This document shows, piece by piece, positions 1-41,985 of a stretch of 64,000 nt of DNA. Location: assembly GCF_026626665.1 (NCBI RefSeq), contig NZ_JAPNKE010000002.1, positions 1,229,204 through 1,293,203 on the forward strand. Direction: 5' to 3'. The position numbers and the translations under genes are program-made. Position 1 is the stretch's first letter. The number at the start of each line of letters is the position of its first letter. The DNA is from Nannocystis pusilla. Lineage in GTDB: Bacteria; Myxococcota_A; Polyangia; Nannocystales; Nannocystaceae. The notes beneath the pieces are model-generated. The model had not been told where the DNA came from. It did not search any database and saw only the letters and a program-made list of their open reading frames with translations.

Positions 1-2664
1 CGGGCGGCGGCGACCGACGGCGGCGTGGCGCTCAGCAACGCCTCGGCGAGGGTGCGGTGGGCGCGAGCGAGGCGCGGGGCCCAGTGCGGGTCGTCGGCGG
101 CGAGGACGGTGAGCTCGGCGACGGCGGCGGCCAGCGGGACGCGGGCCTCGAGCGGCCGGCCGCGGACGAGCAAGTTCTGGCCGAGGACGAGGCGCAGCTC
201 GGCGATCTCCTCGCTCGACCAGGTGGTGTCCGGCATGCGCGCGAGGGTGGCCTGGAGGTGCTCGATGGCGGTGTCGTCGTCGACCGAGCCGGCGAGGCCG
301 CGATAGCCGGCGAGCAGGGTCGCCTCGGGCCCGAACAGGCGCGTGCCGGACAGCTCCGACAGCTCGGCGGCGGCGCGGAAGACCGAGGCGGCGTCGTCGT
401 CGTCGCCGATCTCGGTGGCGGCGCGGCCGAGGTGGAACAGGCACCGCGTGCGACGCACGAGGTCGTCGGGCAAGAACCGCTCGAGGGCGACGCAGCCGGC
501 CTGGAGGATCGACCAGGCCTCGCCCGGCTCGGCGAGCTGGGCGGCGGTGATCCGCGCCTCGATGGTGGCGGGGTGAACGACGCCGAGCTCGGCGTCGAAG
601 ATCTCGAGGGCGCGCGCGAGGAGGTCGTCGCGCGCGGCGCCCGGCTCGGTGACGGAGGCGAGGTTGAGGAGGGTGTAGCCGACGTCGCGGTGGCCGGCCG
701 ACAGGGCGCCCTGGCGCACGCTCAGGGCCTCGGTGAAGTAGCGCCGCGCCTCGGCCGAGTTGCGCTGGGCGAGGTTGGCGACGCCGAGGTTGTGCAGGAC
801 GAGGCCGCGCAGGGCCTCGGGAGCGGCGCCGCGAGAGGCGAGGGCGAGGGCGAGAGGCTCGTCGGCGAGGGCGCGCGCGACCATCTCGGGCCGGCGACTG
901 GCGGCGACGATCCGCGAGGCCACGGCCTCGGCCGCGATCGCGTCGCCGCGCGACTCGATGCCGCTGCGCATGGCCCGGGTCAACCACTCGAGCTCCTGGC
1001 CGGTCTCCTCGGAGGTGTTGAGCGAGAGCCGCCCGCGCAGCAGCGCGACCTCGGCCCGCAGCGGGGCGTAGCCGATCTGCTCGGCGGCGGCTTCGATGTC
1101 GACGGCCTGATCGACGGCGTCGTGGATCCGCCCGAGCTTGGCCAGCGCCTCGACCCGCGCCATGTGATTGCGCAGGTCGGCGACGCGCTCGCCGAGCTCA
1201 GGGTCGTCGGGCGCGGGCGGCTCGGCCTTGAGGAAGGCGAGCTCGTGGCAGGCGGAGGGCGGCACGAGATCGCTGGCGGCGCCGAGCGCCCGCGGGGCCA
1301 TGTCCATGTCGGCGATCGAGAGGGCCTTGACGGTCTCGTCGAAGGCGTCGCGCCGGCGATCGAGGCAGCGGCGCTGGCGATCGAGCAGGGCCTCGGTGTA
1401 GCGGCCCTGGTGCTCGGCGAGGCAGGTGTCGCGGTGGTTCTCGGCCCACGAGGCGGCGAAGCGATCGAGCTTGTCGGCGACCCTGGGCCACAGCACGGCG
1501 GCGTAGTTGGGCGCCGCGTCGCGCAGGGCCGTGGCGACGGCGTTGCGCTGAGCCGGGCCCCAGACGCGGGCGATGTCGGCGTCGGCGTCGGCGCACGGGG
1601 ACTCGGCGGCGGCCTCGGGCACGAAGGCGAGGCCAGCGGCGCCGGCGGTGAGGGCGAGCGCCAGGGCGGCGCCGACGAACCGCCAGGTCCGCCCGCGCGA
1701 CGGGACGAGCGCGCCGAGCAGCGCCTCCATCGACGGGTAGCGGTCGCGCGGCTCGGTCTTGAGGCCGCGCATGAGCGCGGCGATGAGCCACGCGGGCACG
1801 CCGTGGTTGCGCGGCGGGGGCCGCAGGTGGCCGTTGGTGATCGCGTGCGAGAGCGCGAGGATGTCGTTGCCGGCGAACGGCGGCAGGCCGAACAGGGCCT
1901 CGTAGAGGGCGACGCAAGCTGAACTGATCGGAGGCCGGCTCGGCCGCGCCGCCGCGCCAGCGCTCGGGCGCGAGATAGGCGGGCGTGCCGAGGATGTCTT
2001 CGCCGTCGTCGCCGACGCGGATCCGCATGCTCTGACTGGCGCCCGAGGACAGGTCGAGCAGGCCCGGGCGATCGGGGGTGGCGCGCACGAGCCCGAAGTC
2101 GAGGACGCAGGCGCGGCCGGTGGCGTCGATCATGACGTTGCCCGGCTTGAAGTCGCGGTGCAGGAGGCCGACCTCGTGGGCGGCGGCGAGGCCTCGCGCG
2201 GCTTGAGTGAAGACGTCGTGGATCTCGCGCCAGGTCCGCGGCCCGGCGGCCAGCCAGGCCGGCAGCGCGGCGCCGCGGATCAGCTCCATGGCGACGTAGA
2301 CCTGGCCCTTGACGACGCCGGCCTCGAGCACGGTGATGACATTGGGGTGGCTCACGCCGGCCATGGCCTGGGCCTCGCGCAGCAGCCGGATCTGGCCCTT
2401 CGACCCGGTGTCGGGCAGGACCTTGATCGCGACCTTGCGATCGAGGAGCTCGTCGTAAGCGGCGTAGACGACGGCCGTGCCGCCGCCGAGGCGCTCGAGG
2501 ATGGTGAACCGACCGAGCCGCGGAGGCAGGGTCGCAGGGACCGAGATCGCGACACCAGGCAGCGACTGCGTGATGTCCACCGAGATCCCCGACGCGTCCG
2601 TATCGGGAATGATGACGCTCATGGGACTCGACCAGTCTTGCACCGACCCGCACGCACGCCCCAA
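1..2664 (-). CDS. Ser/Thr protein kinase with C-terminal TPR-like repeat domain (runs off window start; apparent 1-nt frameshift near 1920)
   Basis: ORF 1198..2664 (-) begins with a canonical Hanks kinase domain (GxGxxG-like LGGGTAVVY, VAIK, HRDFKPGNV, DFG, APE). After ...DQFS it degenerates into R/P/A junk. The shifted minus frame continues with subdomains IX-XI (CVALYEALFG...RYPSMEALL) and then hundreds of residues of TPR-like repeats. That frame is the antisense of the listed + ORF 57..1922. It continues past position 1. Confidence 0.8.
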
Positions 2665-3269
2665 CCGCGAGGTCGCGAGGCCGATGCAGCGCGTTCAAGC
2701 GGCGCCGCCGGCCCGTGGCGCGTGTCCGCCCGAACGCGACGCGCAGCGGGCGCTAATCATCGCCTGTCCCAAAGTTTTAAATCGGTGTGGGCGACGGAAC
2801 GCCGGCAGAAGCGCGCGCAAGGCGGTCAAACCGCCGTTCTCCTGAAGTTGCCGCGGGCCCGTGATTGTGCGGTTGATCAAGCAACGAGCGGCGATCGTAG
2901 CGACGAAAGACCGAGTATCGGCGGGCGTACCGTGCATCGACGCGATCGTGGCTCGTATGCGGAGTGGGGGCGGATCACGGGCGCCGCGCGGCGGCGAATG
3001 GCACTTGTGCAGTGCGCCACGAATGCGGCGTTTCGGAGTGGTCGAGCTCGCCGTCGGCGCGTGAGACCAGAGTGGCGAAGAGGCGGCGGCGACGCTGGAG
3101 CCGCCGCGCCGTTTTGAGGGGCACGACTGCAAACGCGTGAAGACCGGGCGCGGGGGCGCCGGCGTGGTCGGCGTCACGCTGGGCGGCAGATCGGCGAGCG
3201 AGCGGCCGGTGGGGTTCGTGCCTCGCGCGAGGGTCGACGTCGGCGCGGGGACGTCGGCAGAGAATGACG

Positions 3270-3289
3270 ATATGTCTTTCGGGACATAT
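3270..3289. repeat. 20-bp perfect palindrome ATATGTCTTTCGGGACATAT, a member of the window-wide motif family
   Basis: Read directly: atatgtc-tttcgg-gacatat in the 1.1-kb non-coding gap between the kinase start and guaD. Confidence 0.6.
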
Positions 3290-3549
3290 TGATGACTGGG
3301 GCGAGACCGGGCCGGCGGGGAGGACGGCGCGATGGCTCGGCGGTGAGACTCGTTGCACAGGTGGCGCAGGAGCGCGGCGCGCAGGCGCGAGCGGCGAGGG
3401 CTTCGCGGTCGGCGCCGGAGAGGCCGGGCTTGTCGCCGACGGAGGGCGGCGAGGCCGGCGAGGTCGAGGGAGCGCGAATACGGGTGGCTCGTGGGCGTTG
3501 CGAGCGGTGCTCGGCGATGCGGGACGTCTGGAACGGACGGCCTCGTGAC

Positions 3550-3705
3550 TGCGCTCGCGGAGGGACGAAGGGCTCGCGGGCGGCGCGAACACGACGTCGC
3601 ATTCGCGGAGGCACGCAGGTCTCGCGGGCGGCGCGTACACGGGGCGCGCTCGCGGAGGCACGCGGGCGAGGGCGGGGCGAACACGGGTCGCGCTCGCGGG
3701 TCCAC
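3550..3705. repeat. Degenerate tandem repeat, ~40 bp x3 (CTCGCGGGCGGCGCGWACACG...TCGCGGAGGCACGC)
   Basis: Direct repetition visible in the DNA upstream of guaD. The same periodicity shows in the junk ORF 3174..3770 (VPPRMRRRVRAAREPFVPPRAQ). Confidence 0.6.
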
Positions 3706-3787
3706 GTTGGACTCGTAAGCGCTCGTGCGAGCACTTTGGCGCGGGACCGGATTGCGCGCCGCGGCGGCAACGGGCACCTTCGGCCGG

Positions 3788-5082
3788 ATGTCGACGATCA
3801 CCGACGGCCCCGCGAAGACCCCGTCCCGCGCCCGCGTGCTGCGGGGGCGCATGCTGTGTCCCGATCCGCGGCAGGCGAAGATCGAGCGCATCGCCGACGG
3901 GCTGCTGACGATCGGCGAGGACGGACGGATCGCCGCGATCGCGCCGGCGCCGGAGGACTGCACGCTGCCGCAGTCGTACCCGGGGGCGGTGATTTTGCCG
4001 GGCTTCGTCGACACGCACGTCCACTTCCCGCAGACCCGCGTGATCGGCAGCGCGAGCGGGCCGCTGCTCCGCTGGCTCGAGCGGACCGTGTTCCCCGAGG
4101 AGCAGCGGTTCCACAGCGTGCGCTACGCGGCGGCGGTGGCGTGGGAGTTCTGCGAGGCGATGATCCGCCAGGGCACCACGTGCGCGGCGATCTACGCCTC
4201 GAGCCACGAGGCCGCCACCGACGTGCTGTTCCAGGAGCTGAGCCGCTGCGGGCTGCGGGCGCTGGTCGGCATGACGCTGATGGATCGCGGGGCGCCGCCG
4301 GGGCTGCTCGTCGGGGCCGACGAGGCGATCGCGGGCTGCGAGCGGCTCATCGCCCGCTGGCACGGTCACGACGGCCGGCTCGGGTTCTGCGTCACGCCGC
4401 GGTTCGCCCTCGCTGCACGCCGGAGCTGCTGCGCGCGGCCGGGCGGCTGGCGGAGGCGCACGGATTACATGTCCAAACGCACCTGTCCGAAAATACCGAT
4501 GAGTTGGTGCACACCGCGACGGCGTTCCCGGCGGCCCGCGATTACCTCGAGGTGTACGAGTCGCACGGGCTCAGCGGGCCGCGCTCGGTGTTCGCGCACT
4601 GCGTGCACCTGTCGGACGGCGAGTGGGATCGACTGGCGGCGGCCGGCGGGGCGGTGGCACATTGCCCCGACAGCAACTTCTTCCTCGGCAGCGGCTGCAT
4701 GCGCCTGCGGGCGGCCACCGGGCGGGGCATCCGCGTCGGGCTCGGCACCGACGTCGGCGCCGGCCGCAGCTTCTCGCTGCGCCAGGTGGTCGCGAGCGCC
4801 TACGACGCGAGCCTCATCGCCGGGGCGCCCGCGACGGCCGAGGAGCTGTTGTGGCTGGCGACCCGGGGCGGAGCTTGCGCGCTGGGGATGGCGGCCGAGC
4901 TCGGTTGCCTGCAGCCCGGTCACTCGGCCGATCTGGCGGTGATCGACGCGCCCGAGATCGCGGCCGCCGACGGGCTGTTCGACGCCCTGGCGTTCCGGCG
5001 CGACGCGGCGCCCGCCCGCGCGGTGTTCGTCCGCGGGGCGCTGCTGCGGGGCGCGGTCGCTGCCGGTCCCGAGGTGGTGTAA
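3788..5082 (+). CDS. guaD: guanine deaminase (amidohydrolase family), apparent 1-nt frameshift near 4412
   Basis: N-terminal half in frame of ORF 3725..4942 (PGFVDTHVHFPQTRVIGSASGPLLRWLERTVFPEE...). C-terminal half in frame of ORF 3289..5082 (LHVQTHLSENTDE...HCPDSNFFLGSGCMRL...GLGTDVGAG). Junction RFALA|CTPELLRAAG needs one extra base. ATG at 3788. Confidence 0.8.
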
Positions 5083-5090
5083 ACCGAGGC

Positions 5091-6512
5091 ATGCTCCGCG
5101 AGACATATCCCCTGTTCCTCGGCGGCCGCGCGGTGCAGGCCAACTTCGACCTGCCCGTGCTGGACAAGTTCTCCGGCGAGGAGGCGGCCCGCGTGGCCCA
5201 GGCCGACCCGGGCACGCTCGACGCGGCGATCGCCGCCGCCGCCGGGACGACGCGGGCGATGGCCGCGCTGCCGCCCTACGCCCGCCAGGCCGCGCTCGAG
5301 CACTGCGCGCGCCAATTCGAGGCGCGCGCGGCCGAGCTGGCGATGGTGCTGTGCATCGAGGCGGGCAAGCCGATCCGCGACGCCCGCGGCGAGGTGGGCC
5401 GCCTGATCGAGACGTTCAAGGCCGCGGCGGCCGAGGTGACGCGACCGGCCGGCGAGGTGCTGGCGATGGCGAGCAGCCCGCGCCTGCGAGGCTACCGCGG
5501 CCAGTGGAAGCGGGTGCCGATCGGCGCGTGCTCGCTGATCTCGCCGTTCAACTTCCCGCTCAACCTGGCGGCGCACAAGATCGCGCCGGCGATCGCCGCG
5601 GGCTGCCCGTTCGTGCTCAAGCCCGCCAGCGCGACGCCGATCTCGGCGCTGCTGATCGGCGAGGTGCTGGCCGAGGCGGACCTGCCCGAAGGGTCATGGT
5701 CGATCGTGCCGTGCCCGCGCGCCGGCGCCGACGCGCTGGCCAGCGACGACCGCCTCAAGCTGCTCAGCTTCACCGGCTCGCCGGCGGTCGGCTGGGCGAT
5801 GAAGGCCCGCGCCGGCAAGAAGAAGGTGGTGCTCGAGCTCGGCGGCAACGCGGCCTGCGTGGTCGACGAGACCGCCGACCTCGAGAAGGTGGTGCCGCGG
5901 CTCGTCACCGGGGCGTTCTACCAGTCGGGCCAGAGCTGCATCAGCGTGCAGCGGATCATCGCCCACACGTCGATCTACGCCGAGCTGCGCGAGCGCCTGG
6001 TCGCGGCCGTCCGCGAGCTGCGCGTCGGCGACCCGCGCGACGAGGACACGTTCATCGGGCCGATCATCTCCGAGAAGGAGGCGAGCCGGATCGCCGCGTG
6101 GATCGACGGCGCGGTCAAGGCCGGCGCGCGCCTGTTGTGCGGCGGCCAGCGCGACGGGGTGATGGTGGCGCCGACGCTGCTCGAGAACGTGCCGCGCGAC
6201 CAGCCGATCGCCGCCGAGGAGGCGTTCGGGCCGGTGGCGCTGCTGTCGGAGTTCGCCAGCTTCGACGAGGCGCTGTGGCAGGTCAACGACAGCAAGTTCG
6301 GCCTGCAGGCGGGCGTGTTCACCCGCGACATCGACCGCATGCACCAGGCGTGGGACTCGCTCGAGGTCGGCGGGGTGATCATCAACGACGTGCCGTCGTT
6401 CCGCGCCGACCCGATGCCCTACGGGGGGGTCAAGGACTCCGGTCTCGGTCGCGAGGGGCTCCGCTTCGCCATCGAGGACATGTCGGAGATCCGGATGCTC
6501 GTGGTGCGGTGA
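5091..6512 (+). CDS. NAD(P)-dependent aldehyde dehydrogenase family protein
   Basis: MLRETYPLFLGG...FTGS...ELGGNA...GQSCISVQRII: ALDH catalytic Cys and Glu motifs. GAGG RBS before the ATG at 5091. Upstream residues of listed ORF 4623..6512 are read-through. Confidence 0.85.
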   Translation: MLRETYPLFLGGRAVQANFDLPVLDKFSGEEAARVAQADPGTLDAAIAAAAGTTRAMAALPPYARQAALEHCARQFEARAAELAMVLCIEAGKPIRDARGEVGRLIETFKAAAAEVTRPAGEVLAMASSPRLRGYRGQWKRVPIGACSLISPFNFPLNLAAHKIAPAIAAGCPFVLKPASATPISALLIGEVLAEADLPEGSWSIVPCPRAGADALASDDRLKLLSFTGSPAVGWAMKARAGKKKVVLELGGNAACVVDETADLEKVVPRLVTGAFYQSGQSCISVQRIIAHTSIYAELRERLVAAVRELRVGDPRDEDTFIGPIISEKEASRIAAWIDGAVKAGARLLCGGQRDGVMVAPTLLENVPRDQPIAAEEAFGPVALLSEFASFDEALWQVNDSKFGLQAGVFTRDIDRMHQAWDSLEVGGVIINDVPSFRADPMPYGGVKDSGLGREGLRFAIEDMSEIRMLVVR

Positions 6513-6516
6513 TGTG

Positions 6517-6556
6517 TCTTTTCGGGCATGTCGTCAGGGACATGTCCGAAAAGACC
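6517..6556. repeat. Perfect inverted repeat (17-bp arms GTCTTTTCGGGCATGTC / GACATGTCCGAAAAGAC, 6-nt loop) between convergent genes; motif family; possible bidirectional terminator or protein-binding palindrome
   Basis: Read directly. Starts 5 nt after the aldehyde dehydrogenase stop and ends 6 nt before the SDR stop. No U-tract. Confidence 0.6.
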
Positions 6557-6561
6557 TCTCG

Positions 6562-7365
6562 TCACACGACCGGGACGGTGCCGCCGTCGATGGTGGTCTC
6601 GCTGCCGTGGATCGAGGCGGCGCGGTCGGAGACGAGGAAGGCGACGAGCTCGGCGACCTCCTCCGGCCGGCCGGGGCGGCCGATCGGGATGCCGCCGAGC
6701 GAGGTCATGAGGCCGTTGCGCGCGGTGGCCTCGTCGGTGCCGGCCTCGGCGGCCAGGCGGACGACGAGGGCGTGGGCGGCGGCGGTCTCGACGTAGCCGG
6801 GGGCGATGCTGTTGACGCGCACGCCCTGGGGGCCGAACTCCTTGGCGAGGCCCTTGCTGTAGGTGCTGAGGGCGGCCTTGGCCGCGGCGTAGGCGAGGGT
6901 GGACTCGTAGAGCGGCATGCGCCGCTGGATCGACGAGACGTGGAGGATGACGCCGTAGCGCTGGGCGACCATGCCGGGCAGGAAGGCGCGGTCGAAGCGG
7001 ACGGCGGCGAGCAGGTTGAGGTCGAGCTCGTGGCGCCACTGGTCGTCGTCGAGGGCGAGGGCGCCGCCGCCGGGAGCGGTCGAACCACCGGCGTTGTCGA
7101 CGAGGATGTCGAGGCCGCCGAAGGCGTCGGTCACGGCGCGGACGACCCGCTCGACGCCCTCGCGGGTGGAGATGTCGGCCCGCACGAACAGGGCCGGCTC
7201 CTGTCCTTCGGGCAAGGCGGAGCGCGCGGTGGTGGCGACCGACGCGCCGCCGGCGGCGAGCCGACGCACCATCGCGGCGCCCATGCCCTGCGTGCCGCCG
7301 GTGACGAGGACGCGCTTGCCGGTGAATTCGCGGGGGTCGTAGAAGAGGGGCGTTGCCTGGCTCAT
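6562..7365 (-). CDS. SDR family oxidoreductase
   Basis: VLVTGGTQGMG (Rossmann TGxxxGxG), NAG, and a Y-x3-K triad region (YAAAKAAL). Confidence 0.85.
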   Translation of the reverse strand: MSQATPLFYDPREFTGKRVLVTGGTQGMGAAMVRRLAAGGASVATTARSALPEGQEPALFVRADISTREGVERVVRAVTDAFGGLDILVDNAGGSTAPGGGALALDDDQWRHELDLNLLAAVRFDRAFLPGMVAQRYGVILHVSSIQRRMPLYESTLAYAAAKAALSTYSKGLAKEFGPQGVRVNSIAPGYVETAAAHALVVRLAAEAGTDEATARNGLMTSLGGIPIGRPGRPEEVAELVAFLVSDRAASIHGSETTIDGGTVPVV

Positions 7366-7451
7366 GGGTCATCTCCGGGCGAGCGCACGCGCGGCGCGTG
7401 GTTCGCCGCCGCCGATTGCTCGGACCGCGAAGATGGGACGAGTCTGGTGGA

Positions 7452-7700
7452 GTGACAAGTACGCACGAAAAAGTCAGCCACTCACCCGCAGGTAAGTCCG
7501 AGCCGCTGACGCCGGAGGCGGTGGCCGAGGCGGTGGGCGAGGCGCTGGCGCTGCTCGAGGGGCGCTGGAAGCTGCGGATCTTGTTCAACCTGTTCGGCGG
7601 CAAGGTGCTGCGCTACTCGGAGCTCGAACGCGCCATTCCGGAGGTGTCGCAGAAGATGCTGGCGCAGGTGGTGAGCCGAGGACGGCGGCTCGGGGCGTGA
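7452..7700 (+). pseudogene. HxlR-family transcriptional regulator, truncated after the HTH region (~65 aa of an expected ~110-120)
   Basis: ALALLEGRWKLRILFNLFGGKVLRYSELERAIPEVSQKMLAQ is a typical HxlR wHTH. The ORF stops 15 aa later. The 76-bp tandem repeat array lies immediately downstream. Confidence 0.55.
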
Positions 7701-7759
7701 GAGGAGCGCAGCGAGCAGGCGCCGGCGAGCGCGAGCGAGGCGGAGCGTTGGGGTTGCGA

Positions 7760-8110
7760 GGCGGATGTCTCTTCGGACAGATGATCGAGGATGTCCGAAG
7801 AGGCAGGTGCTCGCGGCCGTGAGGCGCGGGCGTTTCGGACAGGCGCGCGCTTCGGTCGCGGAGTGACTGTCGCTTCGGACAGGTGCTCGCGGCCGTGAAG
7901 AGCGGGCGTTTCGGACAGGCGCGCGCTTCGGTCGCGGAGTGGCTGTCGCTTGGGACAGGTGCTCGCGGCCGTGAGGCGCGGGTTTTGGACAGGCGCGCTT
8001 CGGTCGCGGAGTGGCTGCTTCGGACGGGCGGGGCGCGGCGCCAGCTGTCGCTTGGGACAGGCGCTCGGCGCTGCAGGGCGGGGCTGTCTCTTCGGACAGG
8101 TGAACCGGCG
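7760..8110. repeat. Tandem repeat array, ~76-bp unit x ~3.5-4, each unit with two motif cores (TGTCGCTTCGGACAGGTG and CGTTTCGGACAGGCG)
   Basis: Units starting ~7803, 7877, 7953 and 8051 align with few substitutions. Terminal copy is ...CTGTCTCTTCGGACAGGTGAACCGGCG. Confidence 0.8.
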
Positions 8111-8195
8111 CTACTCGAAACGCAACGCCGGAGCGCGGTCGCGACGAAGCCGCCCGGAGTCGCGGGACGCCGGGCGGACGGGGCTCGGGCGCGGT

Positions 8196-8579
8196 TCAGC
8201 GCAGCGAGTTGCGGAGCCGCGGGATGGTGTCCGGGAGGACGACGCTGACGAGGATGCCGAGCGGCGCCTTGATGCAGTCGACGGCCATGCCCATGCGGTA
8301 CTTGTCGGTCAGGTCGACGACGATGATCATGACGTTGCCCTCCTCGCCGAGGCGCAGGAGCGTCTGATAGACGAAGTCGGGCACCGGCAGCTGGGACTTC
8401 TTGAGCGCCTCGGTGATTCGTTCACAGAGGATGTTGAAGAGGGCGCACGCCTTGGGCGAGCTGCGGATGCCGGCGACCGACATACCGGACGTCTTGCTGA
8501 AGACGTCGATGGTGGCGAGGCCGCCCATCAGGCCGTCTTCGATCTCGGTGAGGGTCGAATTCACGTCTTTCAGGTTCAT
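8196..8579 (-). CDS. Roadblock/LC7 domain protein (MglB-like)
   Basis: 127 aa with unbiased composition (MNLKDVNSTLTEIEDGLMGGLATIDVF...) and the size/pattern of Roadblock/LC7. Locally lower GC. GGAGGCACACC-type RBS. Confidence 0.7.
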   Translation of the reverse strand: MNLKDVNSTLTEIEDGLMGGLATIDVFSKTSGMSVAGIRSSPKACALFNILCERITEALKKSQLPVPDFVYQTLLRLGEEGNVMIIVVDLTDKYRMGMAVDCIKAPLGILVSVVLPDTIPRLRNSLR

Positions 8580-8929
8580 CTCGGTGTGCCTCCGGGCCGC
8601 GATCAGCGAGCGAGGACCACACTACATGGAGCCGGGGTCCGATCGGTGGGGTGTCGGCGAGAAAGCGGCCCTGCCGTTCCGCGGGGGCGAGCGCGTCGCG
8701 GGTTGCACGCGTTCCGCGAAAGCGGCCGCAGGGCCACCTCCGCGGCGGTTTGGCGTCGTTTACGGTTGCGCAAACGGCGCCAGGCGGCGAGAAATCCCCT
8801 TGGTCCGGGGGCATCCGGGGGCCTGGGGGGCCGGCGGCCGTAGATCACCCCCGCCCGGTCCCGGCGGGTCGGCCGGCCAACTGTCCTGCCAGTCAGGGTG
8901 GTGCGGAGAGGGGGGCGCGCTCGCAAAGG

Positions 8930-9250
8930 GGAGCCGGCGGCTGTCCTTGAGGGCAGGTCAGGAGCGCCCGGCGACGCGCGGCGGTCGATCGGAGGCTGTC
9001 CTGGGGGACAGGTGGCGTCGCGGCGGTAGCGAGCATCGGTGGAGTGCCGTCGCGGCGGCGGTCTCGAGCATCGGTGGAGTGGCGTCGCGGCGGCGGTAGC
9101 GAGAGCGGTTGCCCGGTAGCGACCGCGGCGAGGTCGGGGCGGCGGACTCGAGCATCGGTGGAGTGGCATCGGGGCGGTGGTGGCGAGAGCGGTTGCCCGG
9201 TCGCGACTGCGGCGAGGCCGGGTGCACCGACCTCGCCGCTCGAGCTGTCC
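8930..9250. repeat. Complex direct-repeat region: CGAGCATCGGTGGAGTGSCGTCGCGGCGGCGG x3 and GCGAGAGCGGTTGCCCGGTMGCGACYGCGGCGAGG x2, flanked by CTGTCC-N5-GGACAGG palindromes
   Basis: Read directly. The periodicity reappears as RSLPGNRSRYRRRDATPPMLE repeats in junk ORF 8958..9227. Confidence 0.6.
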
Positions 9251-9276
9251 TTGCGGACAGGTTTTTTAGATGTCTC

Positions 9277-10658
9277 TCAGGCCAGGAGGGCGGCGCACGG
9301 GGTGTTGGAGTAGCCGTCGCCGTCGGCGTTGGTGGCGCCGACCTCGGTGGCCTCCGGCACGACCGACTGCAGGCAGGCGAGCAGGATGTCGGAGGTGTTC
9401 TCGCTCGACGGCGAGTGGTAGTGCTCGGCGGGGTAGCGCAGGGTGCCGCCGCCGCGGCCGGCGACGATGCAGGGCTGGTCGAACACGCTGTGGGTGTAGC
9501 CCGAGGCGGCGTCGCTGCCGAGGATCACGACCGAGTTGTCGAGCAGGTTGCCGTCGCCCTCGACCGTCTCCTTGAGGCGGTTGAGCAGGACCGCGAAGCA
9601 CTCGACGGTCTTGATCGTGCACTGGTCGACCGCCTCGTTGTCGGCGGTGTCGTGGGTCATGTCGTGGTGACCCTTGGCGTGGCCGAGGCTCTTGAAGATG
9701 TGGTAGCCGACCGAGCCCGAGAACTGGATGCTGACGATCCGGGTGAGGTCGCAGCGGAACGCCTCGATGATGATGTCGACCATGGCCGCGTTGACGAGCT
9801 CGATCGGCTCGGCGCCGTCGATGTCCATGTTGGTTTCGATCGGCATGCCCGGCAGGGTGCAGGCCGGCGGCAGGGTCTCGATCTGCTTCTTGATCTGCTC
9901 GACGCTGGCGAGGTGGGCGTCGAGGCGGATCTTGTCGGCGCTGCCGACCCGCAGCTTGAGCGCCTTCACGTCCTCGCGCACGGCGTCGAGGATGTCGACG
10001 CGCGGGCCCTTGGTCGGGTCGTCGGGCGGGACGAAGCTCTCGAACAGGGCGGCGAAGGCCTCCTGCGGGTTGAAGAAGGGCGGCAGCGGCTGGTCGGGGC
10101 CCTTGTGCGAGAGGTACTGCAGGGTCGGCCCCTCGCCGGTGATGACCCGCTTCGACACCGCGAGCTGCAGCGACGGCAGGAAGGTCTGAGCGCCGACGGC
10201 GGCGGCGGCGACCTGGTCGATCGAGGGGCCGCCGAACTTCGACGAGTAGCTGTTCTCGGCGTGCGGCAGCTCGATGAAAGGGAAGCCGGAGAAGAAGCCG
10301 GCGCAGCCGTCGTGGTGGCCGCGGCGGTGCTTCGACGAGGCCTTGATGTCGAAGCCGGTGAGGAGGTTGCAGTAGTCGCGCACGCCCTCGAGCGCGGCCA
10401 GCTGCGGGTCAGCGGGTAGTTCGGCCCGGTCTCGGCGGGGGCCCAGCGGTTGCCCTTGCCGACGTCGGCGGGGTCGACGAGGGCGACGCCGTTGCCGAAG
10501 TGCCAGGTGATCATGCGCCGCGGCAGGTTGGTGCCGTCGGCGTGGGCGGTGCCGTTCGAGTTGAGCATGGCCTCGAGCAGCGGGAGCGCGAGCGCGACGG
10601 AGGTGCCCCCGGCGACGCCGCGGAGCAGGGTGCGACGGCTGAGTTGATGGCGCTTCAT
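9277..10658 (-). CDS. DUF1552 domain protein (planctomycete/myxobacterial family), apparent 1-nt frameshift near 10405
   Basis: N-terminus MKRHQLSRRTLLRGVAGGTSVALALPLLEA (Tat-like signal) lies in the frame of ORF 9966..11570. The remainder is ORF 9277..10383 (RDYCNLLTGFDIK...). Junction NYPLT|PQLAALEGV needs one extra C in a CCC run. AAGGAG RBS. Start is 14 nt after the upstream gene's stop. Confidence 0.8.
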
Positions 10659-10672
10659 GACTCGTGCTCCTT

Positions 10673-12445
10673 TCACTCCGGGGTGCCCACGCGCAGGAAG
10701 GCGGGGCTGGCGACGAGCTCGGCGAGGAGCTCCTTCATGCGGTACTCGTTGTCCTCGAACGCCTGGTCGAGGTCCTTCAGCGCCCCGGCCTCGCCGGGCA
10801 CCTCGAGGTGGCCGGTGGCGTGGCGGAACAGGTTGCGCACGAGGCAGCGCGTGACCGCGGGGCTCTGGCGCAGGAGGCTGCCGAGCTCGCGGGCGCCGTC
10901 GAACTCGCCGAGGCCGTCGAGGTTGCTGACGGTGTCGAGGGTGACGCCGTTCTCGACGAGGCGGAACACGCCGATGCCGTCGAAGTTCTCGAGGCCTAAG
11001 CCGATGTCGTCCATGAGCTTGTGGCAGCCCGAGCACGAGGGGTTGGTCTGGTGCTCGGCCAGGCGGTCGCGCATGGTCGGGTAGTCCTCGCCGACCGGCA
11101 GCTCGGTGACGACGTCGGGCGGCGGCGCCGGGATGCCCTGACACATCAAGACCTCGCGCACGAACTTGCCGCGCAAAGTCGGCGAGGTGCTGCTGATGTG
11201 CGCGTAGGCGGCGAGGAAGCCGCCCTGACCGAGCAGGCCGCCGCGCTTGCTGTCGACCGGGAGGTCGAACTGCTGCCAGGTGTCGCCGAGCACCGCAGGG
11301 TCGGGGATGAGGCCGTAGAGCGCGGCGAGCGGGCCGTTGGCGAAGGTGTAGGGGGCGTCGAGGAAGTCGCGGAAGTCGGCCTCGCGCGTGAAGGCGATGT
11401 CGTCGATGAGCTTGAGCGCCTCCTCGCGCATGGCGGTCCCGAGGGCGGGCGACCAGGCGGGGAAGGTGGCGGGATCCTTGGGCAGCGCCTCGAGGGTGCG
11501 CAGGCGCAGGACCTCGGCGAAGAAGCCGCCGAGAGCGCCGCGCGCGGCTGGCGTTTCGAGCATGGTCCAAGCGACATCCCGGACGGCGTCGGCGGTGGCG
11601 AGGCCGTCGCCCTCGCCGAGGTCGATGAGCTCGCGCGTCGGGGTGGTGTCGAGCAAGAAGAAGCTGAGGCGCGTGGCGAGCTCGACGCCGGTCAGCACCC
11701 GCTGCGCCGGATCGTCGGGATCGGGCTCGCCGACCTCGACCTGGTAGAGGAAGTAGGGCGACTGCAGCAGGCCGGCGACGGCGTATTCGCGGCCCGACTC
11801 CCAGCTGCCGAACGCCAGCGCGGCGTCGCGGCCGACCGCGCCGTAGCGATCGATCTCGGCCTGGGTGAGGCTGCGGCGCCAGGCGACGCGGCCGAAGTTG
11901 GCGACGAACTCCTTGTGACAGGCCTCGTCGTCGGCGCCGGTCGGCACGCAGGTGTGGTAGCTGGCGAGGATGGCGTCGTCGGCGGCGGCCGCGACCTTGC
12001 GCGCAGACTTCTCGTAGGTGTCGACGGCCTGATCGCCCAGCGCGAGCTGGGCGGCGCCGATCGACTCGAAGCCGTTGAGCGCGCTGTCCGGCGGGGTCTC
12101 GACCTCGGCGGCCGCGGCGTCGCCGAGCAAGTAGGCGACGGAGCTCCGGTACTGACGCGCGAGAAGGAGGCGCAGCCGCGCGGGGGCCGGAGCGAACTCT
12201 TCCCCACCGCCGTCAGTCGGGTCGGTGCCTTCGGTCGGATCGCCGTCGGTGCCGGCGGAGTTCGGCCCGCCGGTCTCGGTGGGATCCTCGCCGCCGGTCA
12301 GGGTGGGGTTGCTGGCGCTCTGGTCCTGGCCGGCGCCGTGGTAGCAACCGCCGGCGAGGCTCGCCGTGAGAGTGAGAAGGACCGCGAGCTCTCCCGGACC
12401 TTGCGGCCTGGATGGTGCGCGGGCGAAACGAGGCTGCCTGGGCAT
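10673..12445 (-). CDS. DUF1592/DUF1585/DUF1588-type lipoprotein, the usual partner of DUF1552 proteins
   Basis: Start MPRQPRFA with lipobox LTASLAGGC and AAGGAG RBS. Body contains a CxxCH-like motif (CSGCHKLMDD) and the conserved DUF158x/159x blocks. Immediately upstream of the DUF1552 gene. Confidence 0.8.
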   Translation of the reverse strand: MPRQPRFARAPSRPQGPGELAVLLTLTASLAGGCYHGAGQDQSASNPTLTGGEDPTETGGPNSAGTDGDPTEGTDPTDGGGEEFAPAPARLRLLLARQYRSSVAYLLGDAAAAEVETPPDSALNGFESIGAAQLALGDQAVDTYEKSARKVAAAADDAILASYHTCVPTGADDEACHKEFVANFGRVAWRRSLTQAEIDRYGAVGRDAALAFGSWESGREYAVAGLLQSPYFLYQVEVGEPDPDDPAQRVLTGVELATRLSFFLLDTTPTRELIDLGEGDGLATADAVRDVAWTMLETPAARGALGGFFAEVLRLRTLEALPKDPATFPAWSPALGTAMREEALKLIDDIAFTREADFRDFLDAPYTFANGPLAALYGLIPDPAVLGDTWQQFDLPVDSKRGGLLGQGGFLAAYAHISSTSPTLRGKFVREVLMCQGIPAPPPDVVTELPVGEDYPTMRDRLAEHQTNPSCSGCHKLMDDIGLGLENFDGIGVFRLVENGVTLDTVSNLDGLGEFDGARELGSLLRQSPAVTRCLVRNLFRHATGHLEVPGEAGALKDLDQAFEDNEYRMKELLAELVASPAFLRVGTPE

Positions 12446-15384: not shown

Positions 15385-15640
15385 ATTGCCGACTGCGCCT
15401 CGCGGGGGGTCCGGGGAAGGGCCGGCCGCGAGTTAACCGGCCGGATGCGCGCTCGTTCCTCGCACCCATCCTGCCTCTAATTCGCGGCCGGCCCTTCCCC
15501 GGACCCCTGGCACGGCTGCAGCCGTGAGAGGCCGCCTCGCCGTCGTCGGCTTCGCTGGGGGCTGTCGTCGGGAGCAGAGCCGGGGCGCCTGTTCGGCGGC
15601 CAGGGCTGGCCGCCGAACAGACGCTTTCTCGCGTCATTGA
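15385..15640. repeat. Structured repeat element copy 1 (~150-bp conserved core 15385..15528 with a long imperfect hairpin, a CACGGCTGCAGCCGTG palindrome and a GGCCAGGGCTGGCC palindrome)
   Basis: ~93% identical to 45644..45787 in the same orientation. Outer stem GGGGTCCGGGGAAGGGCCGGCCGCGA / TCGCGGCCGGCCCTTCCCCGGACCCC. Confidence 0.7.
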
Positions 15641-24813: not shown

Positions 24814-25650
24814 TCAGCGGTCGCGGGTGAAGTGGACGCGGATGGCAGGCGAGGGGGCGCGGACCGGGCGGCCGTCGCGGTCGAGGGCGGGGGTGAAGCG
24901 GGTCCGGCGGGCGCAGGCGAGGGCGGCGGCGCCGAAGCCGTCGCCGGGGTCGGTGACGAGCTCGGCGGACTCGACGACGCCGCGGGCGTCGACGGTGACG
25001 CGGATCGTGGCGACCTGCTCGTCGAGCGCGAGGCCGTCGGCCTCGAGCGGCCAGGGGCAGTTCCACTCGTCGCTGGCGAGGGCGACCGGGCGCGAGCGAT
25101 CGACGGCGCCGGGGGAGGCGGGCGGTGGGCTGGCGGTGGGCGCGGGCGGGGGCGCGGGCGATGGCTCCGAGCTGGCGTTCGGGACAGGTTTGGTACCGGT
25201 GCCGGTCGAGCTGGTGGCGCCGCCGACGTAGGCGCTGGCGTTGCCGACGACGACGACGTCGCCGGTGAGGTCGAGGGCGCCCGGCGGGGCGGCGACGACC
25301 TTGCCGGCGCGCGCGGGGGCGGGCCGGGCCGGTCGTGAGGGGGCGGGCGGGGCGGAGGCGACGGCGGGGGCCGGCTCGCTGGCGGCTGGGGGAGGCTCGG
25401 ACGGCGGGGGCTCGGGCGGCGGAGGCGTTGGCTCGGTGCGCTCGACGTCGGCGAGCTGCAGGCGGGTCAGCTCGTCGTGGACGCGCGCGGCCATGGTGGC
25501 GCTCCAGGTCTCCAGCGTGGGCTGGGCCCGCAAGATCATCACCGCGACGCCGAGGTGCAGGAGGACCGCGACGACGATCGCGTGGTGCCGCCGCGAGGCC
25601 GGCGGCGCGGCGGCGGCGAACACCTGGGCGGCGATGCCCGGCCGAGTCAC
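24814..25650 (-). CDS. tonB: Energy transducer TonB
   Basis: N-terminal TM helix, Pro-rich spacer (PPPPEPPPSEPPP), C-terminal TonB domain. Confidence 0.7.
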   Translation of the reverse strand: MTRPGIAAQVFAAAAPPASRRHHAIVVAVLLHLGVAVMILRAQPTLETWSATMAARVHDELTRLQLADVERTEPTPPPPEPPPSEPPPAASEPAPAVASAPPAPSRPARPAPARAGKVVAAPPGALDLTGDVVVVGNASAYVGGATSSTGTGTKPVPNASSEPSPAPPPAPTASPPPASPGAVDRSRPVALASDEWNCPWPLEADGLALDEQVATIRVTVDARGVVESAELVTDPGDGFGAAALACARRTRFTPALDRDGRPVRAPSPAIRVHFTRDR

Positions 25651-26382: not shown

Positions 26383-27069
26383 GCGCGCCTCCGGCTGGCC
26401 TTCGGGACCTGTCGTATCGGACATGTACGCGAGGACGAGGTTGGTGAGGGCCTCGCTGCCCTGGCACAGCGAGGTGATCTTGCGCTGGAAGGCGTTGTAG
26501 GCGGCGACGGCGGGGAGGGCGACGAGGAGGCCAACCGCGGTGGCGACGAGGGCCTCGGCGATGCTCGACATGACGGCGTTGGAGGCGACCTGCGAGGCGG
26601 CGCCGGTGCCCCCGCCGTGGCCGGGGGCGGCGTGGCCGAGCTCCTCGAAGGCCGCGATGACGCCGATGACGGTGCCGAGCAGGCCGACGAACGGGGCGTT
26701 GTTGCCGAGGGTGCCGAGGAAGATAAGGCCGCGCTCGAGCTGGCCGCGCTCGAGGGCGAGGGCGCTCTGCATGGCGTACTCGGCGGCCTTGGGCCCGCGG
26801 TCGGCGAGGCGCAGGCCGGCGGCGGCGATCGCCGCGGCGACGCTCGGCGAGGCGGCGAGCAGGTTTAGGGCGCCGTCGCGGTCGCCGGCCTGCAAGAGGG
26901 CGGCGACGCGGCCGGCGAGCACGCGCAGGTCGCCGCCGCGGGCGCGCAGGACCAGCCAGCGCTCGACGGTGAGGGCGACGCTGACGACCGAGAGCAGGCC
27001 GAGCAGCCACAGCACCCAGCCGGCGCCGGCGCGGAGGAAGAGCTGCTGGAGGGCGTCGATCGGGGTCAT
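26383..27069 (-). CDS. exbB: MotA/TolQ/ExbB proton channel protein
   Basis: LGTLGNNAPFVGLLGTVIGVIAAF...AYNAF signature. Confidence 0.85.
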
Positions 27070-27073
27070 GGGA

Positions 27074-27802
27074 TCATTCCTCGGCGGCCCAGGCGAACCG
27101 CGGCGGGACGGCGATCATGGCGAAGCGGACGGCGGCCAGGGCGTCGGCGGCGGGCGAGGCCGGATCTTCGGCGGCCAGGGCGGCGAGGTCGTGCGGGCCG
27201 GGGCCGAGCTCGGCGAGCTCGTCGAAGTCGACGCCGGCCCACCAGGCGGCGCCGTCGATCGTGACGTCGAGCGCGCCGCCGACGTCGAGGTCGAAGGGAC
27301 CGACCCGCAGGCCCTCGATGGTGCGGCTGCCGCGGAGCACGGGGGCGACGTCGAGGTCGGCGGTGAACTCGAAGGACATGTCCGCAGAGACAGCCGTGCC
27401 GGCGAACCGGGCCGCGCGCCCGCCCGGCGCGCCGTCCTGGGCGCCCGGCTTGGCCTGCGTCTTGAGCCAGGTGACGCCGTAGTCGAGCATGGCCGAGCGG
27501 ACCTGACCGGGCAGGACGTCGAGCTCGCCGAGCGCCTGAGGCCCGGGGTCGAGCAGGTCGACGGGGGCGACCGCGGCGAACTCGGCGGCCGCGGTGGCGC
27601 ACAGTTCGGAGGAGGCGGCCGCGGTGGCGCACAGGTAGAGCGGGCCGAGGCCGACTTCGGCGCGCGTGAGGGTCACGGTCCAGGCGCCCGCGGTCAGCTC
27701 GGCCGCGGCCCCGCGCGCCCGCAGCGGGGCCTGGAAGGCCGGCTCGCCGGTGGCGCCGCAGGCGGCGCAGAGCAGGAGGAGCATGGCTGGTCGGAGGGAC
27801 AT
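27074..27802 (-). CDS. Hypothetical lipoprotein
   Basis: MSLRPAMLLLLCAAC lipobox. 242 aa. Confidence 0.45.
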   Translation of the reverse strand: MSLRPAMLLLLCAACGATGEPAFQAPLRARGAAAELTAGAWTVTLTRAEVGLGPLYLCATAAASSELCATAAAEFAAVAPVDLLDPGPQALGELDVLPGQVRSAMLDYGVTWLKTQAKPGAQDGAPGGRAARFAGTAVSADMSFEFTADLDVAPVLRGSRTIEGLRVGPFDLDVGGALDVTIDGAAWWAGVDFDELAELGPGPHDLAALAAEDPASPAADALAAVRFAMIAVPPRFAWAAEE

Positions 27803-27814
27803 GCGCGAAAGGAC

Positions 27815-27880
27815 CGGTGACGAGGGACAGGTGCGAGAGGACAGGTCTGGAGGGACAGGCGGCTAGAAGTGCAGGGTGAG
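27815..27880. repeat. Motif cluster (GGGACATGCGCGAAAGGACCGGTGA, GGGACAGGTG, GGACAGGTC, GGGACAGGCGG)
   Basis: Read directly, between the lipoprotein start and the TBDR stop. Confidence 0.55.
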
Positions 27881-32393: not shown

Positions 32394-34094
<1,701 letters not shown>

Positions 34095-35814: not shown

Positions 35815-36110
35815 GCGCTCGGCAGGGGTGAGGGACATGTCCGAGAGGGCATGTGATCGGGGGCATGTTTTTTCGGGCATGTCCGAAGAGGCAGGCTTCG
35901 CGGGCGGTGAGCGCGGGGTCGGCGCGGGCATGTGTTCGGGGGGATGTTTTTTCGGGCATGTCCGGAGAGGCAGGCTTCGCTTGGTCGGTGCGGGCACGTG
36001 CTCGGGGCATGCGCTCGCGGACTCCGCGGGACAGAGGGCGTTCGAGGGGCGGGCGGACATGTCCTCGGCGACATGTGCTCGCGGGCATCCGCGATGAGCA
36101 GGTCGCGGGC
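35815..36110. repeat. Dense motif cluster with a ~80-bp direct repeat (GGGCATGTTTTTTCGGGCATGTCCGRAGAGGCAGGCTTCGC x2) upstream of the RND efflux operon
   Basis: Read directly. At least 8 GGGCATGT/GGACATGTCC cores in 300 bp. Confidence 0.7.
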
Positions 36111-41700: not shown

Positions 41701-41861
41701 CGACCGGGATCGGCTCCGACGTGCAGCGGCCGCTGGCGACGGTGGTGGTCGGCGGGCTGGTGTCGACGCTGCTCCTGACGCTGCTGGTGCTGCCGTGCGC
41801 GGCGTCGCTGGTGCGGCCGCGGCGGCGGGGTGGCGCGAGGGACATGTCTTCAGGGACATGA
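38766..41861 (+). CDS. CusA/CzcA-family heavy-metal efflux RND transporter
   Basis: 1031 aa, 12-TM RND architecture. Conserved N-terminus MLTRLPLLALRFRLAVLLAA...YPDVSDTQVVVIT. Confidence 0.9.
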   Translation: MLTRLPLLALRFRLAVLLAAAVWIAAGAYALATLKIEAYPDVSDTQVVVITMLPGYAAEEVEQLVTVPIERALGSVPHVIGRRSRTIFGLSVVELTFDDAIDDLVARQVVLEKLRDADLPPGVESSLGPMSTAIGEMFRYHLVSATLTTMQLRTLQDWVVAPRLLQSPGVADVITFGGEVRQYQVEVDPLALDKFHLSIDDIAAAIEENNENAGGGVIDNGQQSIAVRSVGQLQSAEDIASTLVGVDGGVPIFVRDVATVRIGPAPPTGIFGLDAAQGGVEGVVLMRRWENPSEVLRGIHARVDALNAGEELAGARIEGFYDRSELVGRTLRTVSRTLAEGVTIVVFVLVLLLASVRAALLTALMIPLSLLFAFVCMKLAGVPANLLSLGAIDFGIIVDGTLVMVEAIVHRLQQRPDPRAPAEPDEFAAAAREVTRPIVFSLAIIIAAYLPLFMLQRVERRLFTPMAFTVSTALLGALLLSLTLTPVLASYVFRRGVKSRPSRVMSAIAAGYAGLVRRLVRRARPVVAGAAVVTVAALVLVGGRVGTEFLPQLDEGSIWIRCNLPRGLSLFKSAEIASTIRGLVLQSPEVRQVASQTGRNDSGTDPYGPNRNEFLVGLQPYDTWPKGQVKADLVEALARRLRAAIPGATFSFTQPILDNATEAATGSSADLAIIVRGPDLGELRRLAVQSRAIVAGIAGAADTAIEQEAAQEQLRLRLRRADMARYGADVADVQQLVSLAIGGRPIATVYEGSRRFAAALRYIPEARASGEAIGRLMVMPHRGGRVPLAEVADIEVAEGATIIARRENQRQVTVRTNIRGRDQGSFVAEAQRQLQAALQLPPGYRLEWGGQFENLTRARRRLVVILPLTLGIILALLCFAFRSLRWALLVLACVPFSLLGGVLALWLRGIHLSVSAAVGMVSLFGVAVMSGVLLVESIRAVAAGGDAVEDTVQGATRAVRPLLLMILVALLGMVPAARATGIGSDVQRPLATVVVGGLVSTLLLTLLVLPCAASLVRPRRRGGARDMSSGT

Positions 41862-41985
41862 AGACGGCGGCGGGTTCGCGCGACGCTGGTGTCCCTGGCG
41901 ACATGTCCGATACGACATGCGCCCAGGGGCATGTCCAGGGAGACATGCGCTTACGGGCATGTCCCGGGCGACATGCGGCAGCGGC
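41848..41985. repeat. Motif cluster (GGGACATGTCTTCAGGGACATGAAGAC ... GACATGTCCGATACGACATGCGCCCAGGGGCATGTCCAGGGAGACATGCGCTTACGGGCATGTCCCGGGCGACATGCGG)
   Basis: Read directly. Spans the last codons of czcA and the convergent gap to the GGT gene. Confidence 0.7.

Follow-up and report, generated by a model that had tools for sequence, protein, structure and literature searches.

Copies of a clade-specific dispersed palindrome inside genes of Nannocystis pusilla

A 64-kb stretch of Nannocystis pusilla DNA (64,000 nucleotides of contig NZ_JAPNKE010000002.1, hereafter the window) contains a family of short palindromes, TGTC-N6-GRCA, that resembles the repetitive extragenic palindromic (REP) elements, is specific to one Nannocystis clade, lies mostly outside genes and is enriched at gene 3′ ends. 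Copies of the palindrome also occur inside genes, in greater numbers than the encoded proteins account for, and the rare codons that spell them are preferentially retained among related species. A first-pass annotation, made from the letters of the window, had pointed to such words in guaD, the guanine deaminase gene, and in five other genes, and had argued that the word itself is under selection at the DNA or RNA level. An excess over synonymous recoding, the retention of rare codons and the comparison of orthologues all agree that the words are not a product of chance and that there is constraint on the word. Nucleotide-level constraint exerted through recognition by a sequence-specific factor is a probable explanation, though far from an assured one.

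The intergenic palindrome family

The GC content of the window is 69-76% (~72% overall), and GC skew is positive throughout. Coding frames were called by a codon log-odds Viterbi pass, which gave 17,835 codons and divided the window into 53.7 kb of coding and 10.3 kb of noncoding DNA. These calls are statistical, and the open reading frame (ORF) around every intragenic site cited below is also supported in relatives, by conservation, a gene call or a Pfam annotation. G or C ends 96% of the codons, and A/T-ending (AT3) codons make up 4.2%, in line with the earlier claim that the codons in question are rare: TTA occurs twice in the window, AAT is used for 20 of 339 Asn codons and CAT for 22 of 347 His codons.

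The words GGACATGTCC, GGGCATGTCC and CTGTCC-TTCG-GGACAGGTG abound in intergenic regions, and the repeat unit is a 14-bp palindrome, TGTC-N6-GRCA. This pattern has 66 matches on the two strands, compared with 3.38 expected and a shuffle maximum of 11. The 64 kb hold 38 distinct sites, 32 of them noncoding; in the comparison of spacer length, all 33 noncoding copies have exactly N6. The extended logo is approximately RCMTGTC-N6-GACAKGY, with T-rich spacers such as CTTCGG. Tandem 14-bp sites abut head to tail, giving rise to 14-nt and 28-nt periodic arrays (27794-27861, 41914-41977 and 35827-35980), and arrays have up to nine cores; in purely direct arrays, the left arm is degenerate, reading GGTG or GGTC on the + strand. 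Noncoding DNA has ~10 times the density of motif words found in coding DNA. Site density is 7.0/kb in convergent, 2.8/kb in tandem and 1.1/kb in divergent spacers, so gene 3′ ends are favoured rather than promoters.

A direct array of five GGACAKG units at 14-nt spacing (27794-27861, + strand) lies between the stop codon of a TonB-dependent receptor (TBDR) gene and the start of the next gene; in relatives, its cores are kept and its spacers are variable. Abutting 14-bp sites form another array at 41840-41977, between the convergent czcA and ggt genes, and arrays of motif units are found upstream of the czc operon (35827-36080). Motif sites also bound the units of a 76-nt tandem repeat (7766-8098) and, likewise, 114-nt repeat units.

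Motif density is 0.56-1.75/kb in nine loci of the clade comprising N. exedens, N. pusilla, N. punicea, N. radixulma and N. bainbridge, and at most 0.28/kb in 75 other myxobacterial loci, including three other Nannocystis metagenome-assembled genomes (MAGs). No Rfam family was matched anywhere in the window at gathering thresholds, and a scan of viral contigs for CTGTCCTTCGGGACAKGT gave no match. Maximum-order Markov k-mer enrichment was uninformative for the TGTC-N6-GRCA motif, and a literature search for Nannocystis or myxobacterial repeats of the REP type, or of the type mobilized by REP-associated tyrosine transposases (RAYTs), found nothing relevant.

The degenerate arm has a strand polarity. 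On the + strand, GGACAGGT occurs 20 times and ACCTGTCC three times, and noncoding GRCAKG is found 79 times on the + strand and 38 times on the − strand, independently of the direction of flanking genes and mirrored in reversed loci. The polarity was compared in the window and in three related loci (L082-L084). The + strand of the window is G-rich along its whole length, and the polarity may be connected with replication or may simply follow from the skew.

Motif copies inside genes

Intragenic copies were assessed against a null in which synonymous codons were shuffled within each coding segment, with protein sequence and codon usage kept. In coding sequence, GGACAKG occurs 15 times on the + strand, compared with 8.7 from shuffles, and CMTGTCC 15 times, compared with 6.3. 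There are five full TGTC-N6-GACA sites where 0.31 are expected, a count reached by 0 of 300 shuffles. Eleven decoy palindromes with permuted half-sites were observed 0 times, or once in one case, with expectations of 0.01-0.98, and none exceeds expectation. GGACAGG/CCTGTCC is found 18 times against 5.1 expected (z 5.9), the maximum z among 60 decoy 7-mers of the same composition being 2.5. GGACATG shows no enrichment (12 vs 10.1), since most of its occurrences spell Asp-Met-Ser in common codons. A position weight matrix (PWM) built from 117 noncoding copies, with a match threshold of at least 10 bits, has 32 coding matches against 18.0±3.2 in shuffles; tandem matches at 13-15 nt number eight against 2.2±0.8, with guaD first (29.6 bits) and ggt second (27.2 bits). 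Pro codon choice follows the same pattern: CCT is used in 4 of 13 Pro-Val(GTC)+C contexts, where it completes CCTGTCC, and in 0 of 70 other Pro-Val contexts, its overall share being 4.2%. Overall, coding sequence carries only ~15 copies per 54 kb beyond expectation.

The clearest tandem pair is in guaD (3787-5082, + strand), which passes the NCBIfam guanine deaminase equivalog cut-off (399 vs 375.4 bits). A low-GC patch at 4462-4509 (+ strand) encodes the catalytic-motif peptide GLHVQTHLSENTDELV and reads GGA TTA CAT GTC CAA ACG CAC CTG TCC GAA AAT ACC GAT GAG TTG GTG, exactly as first transcribed. The description of this patch as five or six rare codons in a row was not literally accurate, since the codons are not consecutive; 8 of the 16 are nevertheless A/T-ending. 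When 12-codon windows were scanned without bias, the patch was joint first, with 6 of 12 AT3 codons, the other top window being a ribosome-binding site and start region. Only 13 windows have at least five A/T-ending codons, and multiple motif words are present in three of these: guaD, ggt and the kinase gene discussed below, all three of which the first-pass annotation had named. The match of the guaD patch to the motif is confirmed on the antisense strand, where two tandem units lie 14 nt apart (4464-4492, − strand) in an arrangement of the same type as the intergenic direct arrays: TTTCGGACAGGTGCG (4478-4492, 15.7 bits) and GTTTGGACATGTAAT (4464-4478, 13.9 bits). No tandem motif pair in coding sequence scores higher, and the maximum in 200 synonymous shuffles is 25.5 bits.

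Comparison of orthologues connects the patch to the repeat family. The closest relative of the window's guaD is that of Nannocystis sp. RBIL2 (98% protein and 97.5% nucleotide identity), followed by N. exedens, N. punicea, N. bainbridge and N. radixulma (97-86% protein identity), with an uncultured Nannocystis MAG (L005, 73% protein identity) as the nearest outgroup. The 15 codons for GLHVQTHLSENTDEL include 4-8 AT3 codons in the N. exedens/pusilla clade. The outgroup has none, reading CAC GTC CAG ACC CAC CTG TCC GAG AAC with a single residue different, and 47 non-clade orthologues from loci with a GC content of at least 0.69 have 0-2. Thus, the patch is distributed as the motif is, with the same clade genomes carrying both. 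The first-pass annotation had asked whether orthologues encode the peptide with the same codons in genomes that lack the dispersed motif; motif-free genomes use common codons at this peptide, and genomes with the dispersed motif use the rare ones. None of the six clade species departs from CAT, GAA or AAT, the AT3 codons inside the motif words, whereas GGA, TTA, CAA, GAT and TTG vary. The peptide alignment is ungapped across 80 orthologues, and the core differences from the outgroup are synonymous, at third codon positions. Divergence between the window and RBIL2 is not elevated in the patch (3/54 vs 30/1241, p = 0.16). Low-GC guaD orthologues use other codons at the patch (ATC/ATT, TCT). Scans for sigma-70 promoters and terminators around guaD found none on either strand.

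Evidence for retention of the rare codons came from two alignments, one of window positions 1-15.3 kb with five relatives and one of 22.7-44.2 kb with loci of N. pusilla, N. punicea and N. radixulma that were reached via their kinase orthologues. At conserved residues, the baseline for a codon being identical in all relatives is 25-28% if it ends in A/T and 74-80% if it ends in G/C. AT3 codons inside motif words were retained in 13 of 17 cases, compared with 27 of 100 (Fisher p = 1.5e-4). In PWM windows of both regions, 15 of 23 were retained, compared with 66 of 237 elsewhere (65% vs 28%, p = 4.5e-4). The use of rare codons is a by-product rather than a second line of evidence, because the word contains A/T and the genome has 96% GC at third codon positions.

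Five of the six first-pass examples hold (guaD, ggt, exbB, TBDR and kinase, the last four conserved in sister species), and the strings cited for the five genes other than guaD are all present. The ggt patch, TCC GGA CAT GCC CTG AAA GAC ATG GGC TTT CAG ACA GCC (42691-42730, − strand), holds a full site at 42708-42721 and three motif units ~14 nt apart. Four relatives keep TTG, GGA, CAT, TTT and ACA, while residues between them vary (A/G/D, K/R and D/G/S/A). Alignment of the ggt patches with E. coli GGT (2e0w) needs no gaps, and the residues they cover differ from those of the E. coli protein. Since the alignments of both guaD and ggt are ungapped, these copies were written in place by point substitution, not inserted. 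A second full site in ggt, AAT CCT GTC CTC GGG GAC ATG (42963-42976, − strand), has its CCT in 4 of 4 relatives.

The exbB/tolQ-family site (26404-26429, − strand; full site 26410-26423) falls in the last 20 codons of its gene, ~20 nt upstream of the exbD ribosome-binding site; this tail keeps ACA, GGT and GAA, and GAT in 2 of 3 relatives. A 236-aa ORF has a full site with conserved arms, GCT GTC TCT GCG GAC ATG TCC (27374-27392, − strand). It keeps GCT GTC ... GAC ATG while the spacer residue is A, S or G among species, and in N. punicea the site is CTGTC-TCTTCG-GACATG, the commonest intergenic form. In the TBDR gene, the full site CTG TCC CAT CGG ACA G (28974-28987, − strand) has conserved CAT and ACA codons. 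A 35-nt hairpin in the Pro-rich linker of a Ser/Thr kinase (32681-32715, − strand) includes a full site at 32690-32703; its nucleotides stay identical where the surrounding segment is poorly conserved, a 24-mer being intact in a relative with 56% local protein identity. A half-site in a TonB-like linker, AAA CCT GTC CCG (25178-25192, − strand), is conserved in three relatives. The kinase linker, the TonB linker and 36-nt tandem repeats at the TBDR N-terminus encode Pro-Val-Pro with CCT GTC CC, and the kinase and TBDR repeats share the 15-mer AACCTGTCCCTTCGG. For these three Pro-rich linkers, an origin by in-frame insertion or duplication is possible.

The sixth example, GAAGGGACAGGTCAA in czcA (40640-40654, + strand), is a chance match: its GGA codon is present only in the window and in a second N. 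pusilla assembly (L084), with GGG in N. punicea and N. radixulma (L082, L083). A GGA codon at 35047 is not conserved either and is attributable to chance in the same way. The description of the words as lying in conserved coding sequence applies only to guaD, where the peptide is strongly conserved; the ggt positions vary between species, the exbB site is in a C-terminal tail and the kinase site is in a Pro-rich linker.

The TBDR N-terminal repeats occupy 29903-30145 (− strand) and encode Pro-rich units like QPVPSASQPGPP. Each 36-nt repeat carries CCTGTCCCTTCGG, in the same 15-mer context as the kinase linker site, and the segment was scored noncoding by the frame caller though it is inside the receptor ORF. 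The interval 26.4-43.0 kb comprises the TonB/ExbB/TBDR operon, the kinase gene and ggt; 46-64 kb is poor in both intergenic arrays and intragenic sites.

Recognition of the motif and rival explanations

Structural evidence came from an intergenic hairpin at 6515-6556, between convergent aldehyde dehydrogenase and short-chain dehydrogenase/reductase (SDR) genes. It has the apex CATGTC-N6-GACATG and a folding z of −6.5, and its arm, GGACATGTCCGAAAAGACC, resembles the guaD word CCTGTCCGAAAATACC. In five species, the apex is fixed and the next three pairs are compensatory (GAG/CTC, GGG/CCC, GCG/CGC). All 54 of 54 alignment cells pair (100%), with the pair at columns 2/23 being AU, CG or GC by species, and the covariation score was matched by only 1 of 500 shuffles. 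These alignments indicate selection for a hairpin in at least some motif copies. The TBDR and kinase sites also lie at the apex of extended hairpins (z = −4.0 and −1.8, respectively). Other features point to recognition of half-sites: half-site centres are 10 bp apart and spacer length is invariant; identical columns in orthologous noncoding copies make up 74% of arms, 30% of spacers and 33% of flanks; and GGGACAKG cores are conserved in direct arrays that are unable to pair. The element may be both a hairpin and a pair of half-sites recognized by a factor.

In the proposed mechanism, the guaD patch would be an embedded copy or half-copy of the clade-specific, REP-like dispersed element, and the ggt, exbB, 236-aa ORF, TBDR, kinase linker and TonB linker sites would be embedded copies likewise. 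A sequence-specific factor for the intergenic copies would also engage the intragenic ones. Most likely, the factor would either be a protein dimer that reads duplex DNA at two GACA half-sites separated by one helical turn, or have as its target the palindrome's hairpin in RNA or single-stranded DNA. At gene ends, the main job of the element may be termination, 3′-end protection or insulation. Among the motif hairpins at 3600-7000 and 7400-9400, the T tract of an intrinsic terminator (a GC-rich hairpin followed by a U tract) is found only at 9245-9270. Hairpins without U tracts may still terminate transcription in high-GC bacteria. A stronger reading, which is tentative and rather unlikely, is that of a genome-wide, non-REP/RAYT recognition system in one Nannocystis clade, in which a protein would read TGTC-N6-GACA in a 14-bp register, the degenerate arm would be polar to the G-rich (probably leading) strand, and the motif would override the strongest codon bias inside conserved enzymes.

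Several observations weigh against constraint through a recognition factor. G/C-ending codons are no more conserved in motif windows (78%) than elsewhere (80%). The species comparisons cover two syntenic regions in one clade, and the origin is effectively a single evolutionary event, sister species not being independent; for guaD alone, the occurrence of three of seven clade-wide derived AT3 codons within ten codons has a P of about 0.08. Alignments of repeat-rich spacers may be anchored on the motif, inflating the contrast between arms and spacers. A function as a hairpin alone leaves out the guaD patch and the ggt patch at 42691, neither of which folds (z = +0.9 and +1.5, respectively). The six full intragenic sites are all confined to 26.4-43.0 kb, by the densest arrays, which fits local spread too. 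With these data, selection cannot be separated from a non-adaptive drive. The first-pass reading is therefore upheld for constraint on the word, and needs qualifying in that drive is not separable, one of its examples is a chance match, rare codons are not an independent signal and guaD on its own falls short.

Under a non-adaptive drive, which is unlikely but carries appreciable weight, a copying bias would make and keep intragenic copies that are functionless in genes, and selection would only remove damaging versions. This could occur by ectopic gene conversion from the many repeat copies, or by in-frame insertion of the element into tolerant linkers. The clustering of intragenic full sites beside dense intergenic arrays is consistent with this explanation, as is the similarity of the ggt site CATGTCTTTCAGGGCATGT to CATGTCCTTCAGGGCATGG, an intergenic copy at 16118 from which it is two positions off. 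The kinase and TBDR N-terminal sites, with their common 15-mer, are in Pro-rich linkers or repeats where insertion is plausible. However, the guaD and ggt copies are ungapped substitutions, and proto-sites would share too little contiguous identity with a donor for ordinary homologous conversion, judging by known minimal pairing lengths. Moreover, arms are conserved while spacers drift even inside genes, which argues for half-site constraint rather than whole-tract copying. Recombination with a lower-GC donor as the source of the guaD patch is extremely improbable. While the patch is a local GC dip, its peptide departs from that of the nearest outgroup by a single residue, third codon positions account for the core differences, the codons of low-GC orthologues are not those of the patch, and the core has been common to six species since their common ancestor. 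The alternative put forward in the first-pass annotation, of recombination or insertion patches, is excluded for guaD and ggt, where the ungapped alignments led to rejection of an insertion origin and, in guaD, the core changes are synonymous.

A reading of the guaD patch as a rare-codon or AU-rich element that has no relation to the repeat and resembles the motif only incidentally is improbable. Such an element could be an internal or antisense promoter, a cleavage site of the RNase E type or a pause in translation at the metal-binding motif. The patch is less structured than shuffles, and flanking guaD codons drift to A/T in several lineages, both of which would suit such an element. Nonetheless, neither strand has a sigma-70-like promoter or terminator, the dearth of AT3 codons in other high-GC orthologues indicates that the cluster is not a conserved guaD feature, and the conserved AT3 codons are exactly those in the motif words of the top tandem pair in coding sequence. 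Chance combined with ascertainment is very unlikely to explain the whole set. The circularity is real, in that an A/T-containing word can be found in coding sequence only where rare codons occur; GGACATG is not enriched, many 7-mer matches are ordinary Asp-Met-Ser or Leu-Ser with 0 of 16 AT3 codons, and the GGA codons in czcA and at 35047 are not conserved. Chance is rejected for the set by the shuffles, the same-composition decoys and cross-species retention, and stands for czcA. Equally doubtful is a DNA-uptake signal that accumulates by biased uptake and recombination and creeps into genes. The motif is clade-specific and forms inverted pairs at gene ends, and single intragenic copies lie at poorly conserved residues, as for uptake signal sequences (USS) and DNA uptake sequences (DUS) (PMC2817400). 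Uptake signals are, however, common in genes, whereas the coding density here is ~10 times below that of spacers; a strict N6 palindrome and abutting 14-bp arrays are not features of uptake signals, and the core is short and degenerate.

Known systems, neighbouring features and significance

The closest known systems appear to be REP elements and bacterial interspersed mosaic elements (BIMEs), USS/DUS in coding regions, and the dRS3 repeats and intergenic mosaic elements (NIMEs) of Neisseria. There are striking parallels with REP/BIME: short imperfect palindromes in high, lineage-specific copy number that are mostly extragenic, lie after genes or between convergent genes, are arrayed and form hairpins. 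The TGTC-N6-GRCA core with its extended arms is a palindrome of this kind (about 20-40 nt, imperfect and able to form a hairpin), and within the window it is numerous, predominantly extragenic and often found after genes. Membership of the REP/RAYT class fails on the GTAG head: a 5′ GT[AG]G is absent, the flank of the motif being a GTG on the 3′ side of its right arm, or a CAC on the 5′ side in the opposite strand. No RAYT (IS200/IS605-type Y1 transposase) was seen in the 64-kb window, and none was noticed among Pfam calls for four related 21-kb loci (L081-L084). The strict N6 core and abutting 14-bp register also differ from REP, and REP copies are not known to be written into conserved coding sequence by substitution.

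Uptake signals share with the motif a short word that occurs in genes, shapes codon and residue choice at poorly conserved positions and forms inverted pairs at gene ends; 34.5-65% of them lie in ORFs (PMC2817400). They favour preferred codons, whereas the intragenic copies here are few, use the rarest codons and form a fixed-spacing palindrome, and the motif does not occur at ~1 copy/kb through genes and spacers alike.

Neisseria dRS3 is a fixed-spacer palindrome, ATTCCC-N8-GGGAAT, that bounds longer intergenic repeat units and has been linked to phage integration. The palindrome described here similarly bounds the 76-nt and 114-nt units, and differs in sequence and clade; among viral contigs, no link to phage was evident. 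Operators of dimeric helix-turn-helix proteins (CRP family, TGTGA-N6-TCACA; PadR family, ATGT-N8-ACAT) are likewise 14-16-bp palindromes with half-site centres 10 bp apart, and ATGTC-N6-GACAT literally contains ATGT-N8-ACAT, with conserved arms and a free spacer. The spacing is fixed as in such operators, but the copies are far too many, are arrayed, and are rarest in divergent (promoter) spacers rather than being placed at promoters with few copies per target. Rare-codon clusters for co-translational folding have a fixed place in an enzyme and are kept across species. The guaD cluster, by contrast, coincides with motif words and is absent from other high-GC orthologues, so its position is not conserved irrespective of the word. 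Other readings were dropped: a CsrA-type GGA sponge for the 14-nt arrays, on a GGCA variant without GGA and on GGA lying in the stem and not the loop; LexA, sigma-54, KOPS and Chi, on copy number, arrays and extragenic bias; and Rho rut sites, on array orientation following the DNA strand and not the direction of transcription.

A second cluster of conserved A/T-ending codons, at 10632-10673 (− strand), reads AAAGGAGCACGAGTCATG and is identical in 5 of 5 relatives. The cluster consists of a Shine-Dalgarno sequence and start codon that overlap the tail of the preceding gene, so that here, unlike in guaD, a commonplace feature accounts for the rare codons. Apparent frame breaks relative to sister genomes are found in guaD (4400-4410, a 1-nt deletion near 4405 that reads CTC-GCTGC where relatives have CTCAGCTGC, and is present in 0 of 6 relatives), in the first gene (a frame switch at 1915-1916), in ggt (a frame switch at ~42620-42640, just ahead of the GTTH catalytic motif) and in the TBDR gene (27866-27934, where the stop codon is in a different frame from the body of the gene). 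Fragmentation is similar in the N. pusilla assembly L084. These are probably long-read indel errors, with pseudogenes as the alternative.

Upstream of guaD, 1.26 kb without coding signal (2507-3767) holds a 48-nt tandem repeat (3551-3699); ~2850-3720 is alignable only to RBIL2, the closest relative, and not to the other four species. Another 690 nt without coding signal (8587-9277) contains 35-nt and 84-nt tandem repeats (9020-9222) and closes with a motif hairpin and the T tract at 9245-9270 (+ strand); it could be an unannotated + strand RNA. Finally, a 242-nt dispersed repeat with 83% identity between copies (15385-15626 and 45644-45885), each with a pair of 39-nt inverted arms separated by 42 nt, was not matched by any Rfam family and resembles a miniature inverted-repeat transposable element (MITE) or a structured RNA; it is unrelated to the TGTC-N6-GRCA family.

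If constraint on the motif word is real, this dispersed repeat is not just intergenic junk, since it would impose synonymous constraint, and even residue choice, in enzymes. Against a background of 96% GC at third codon positions, embedded copies would be easy to see and easy to test, with guaD 4462-4509 and ggt 42691-42730 as specific recodable targets. The clade would thus offer a natural system for asking what recognizes REP-like elements and what they do. The findings also caution that, in a high-GC genome, a cluster of rare codons can be the trace of a nucleic-acid motif and not a signal for translation. Should the tentative reading of a genome-wide recognition system prove true, the motif would amount to a second, clade-specific code on coding DNA, serving chromosome organisation, transcription insulation or self-marking.

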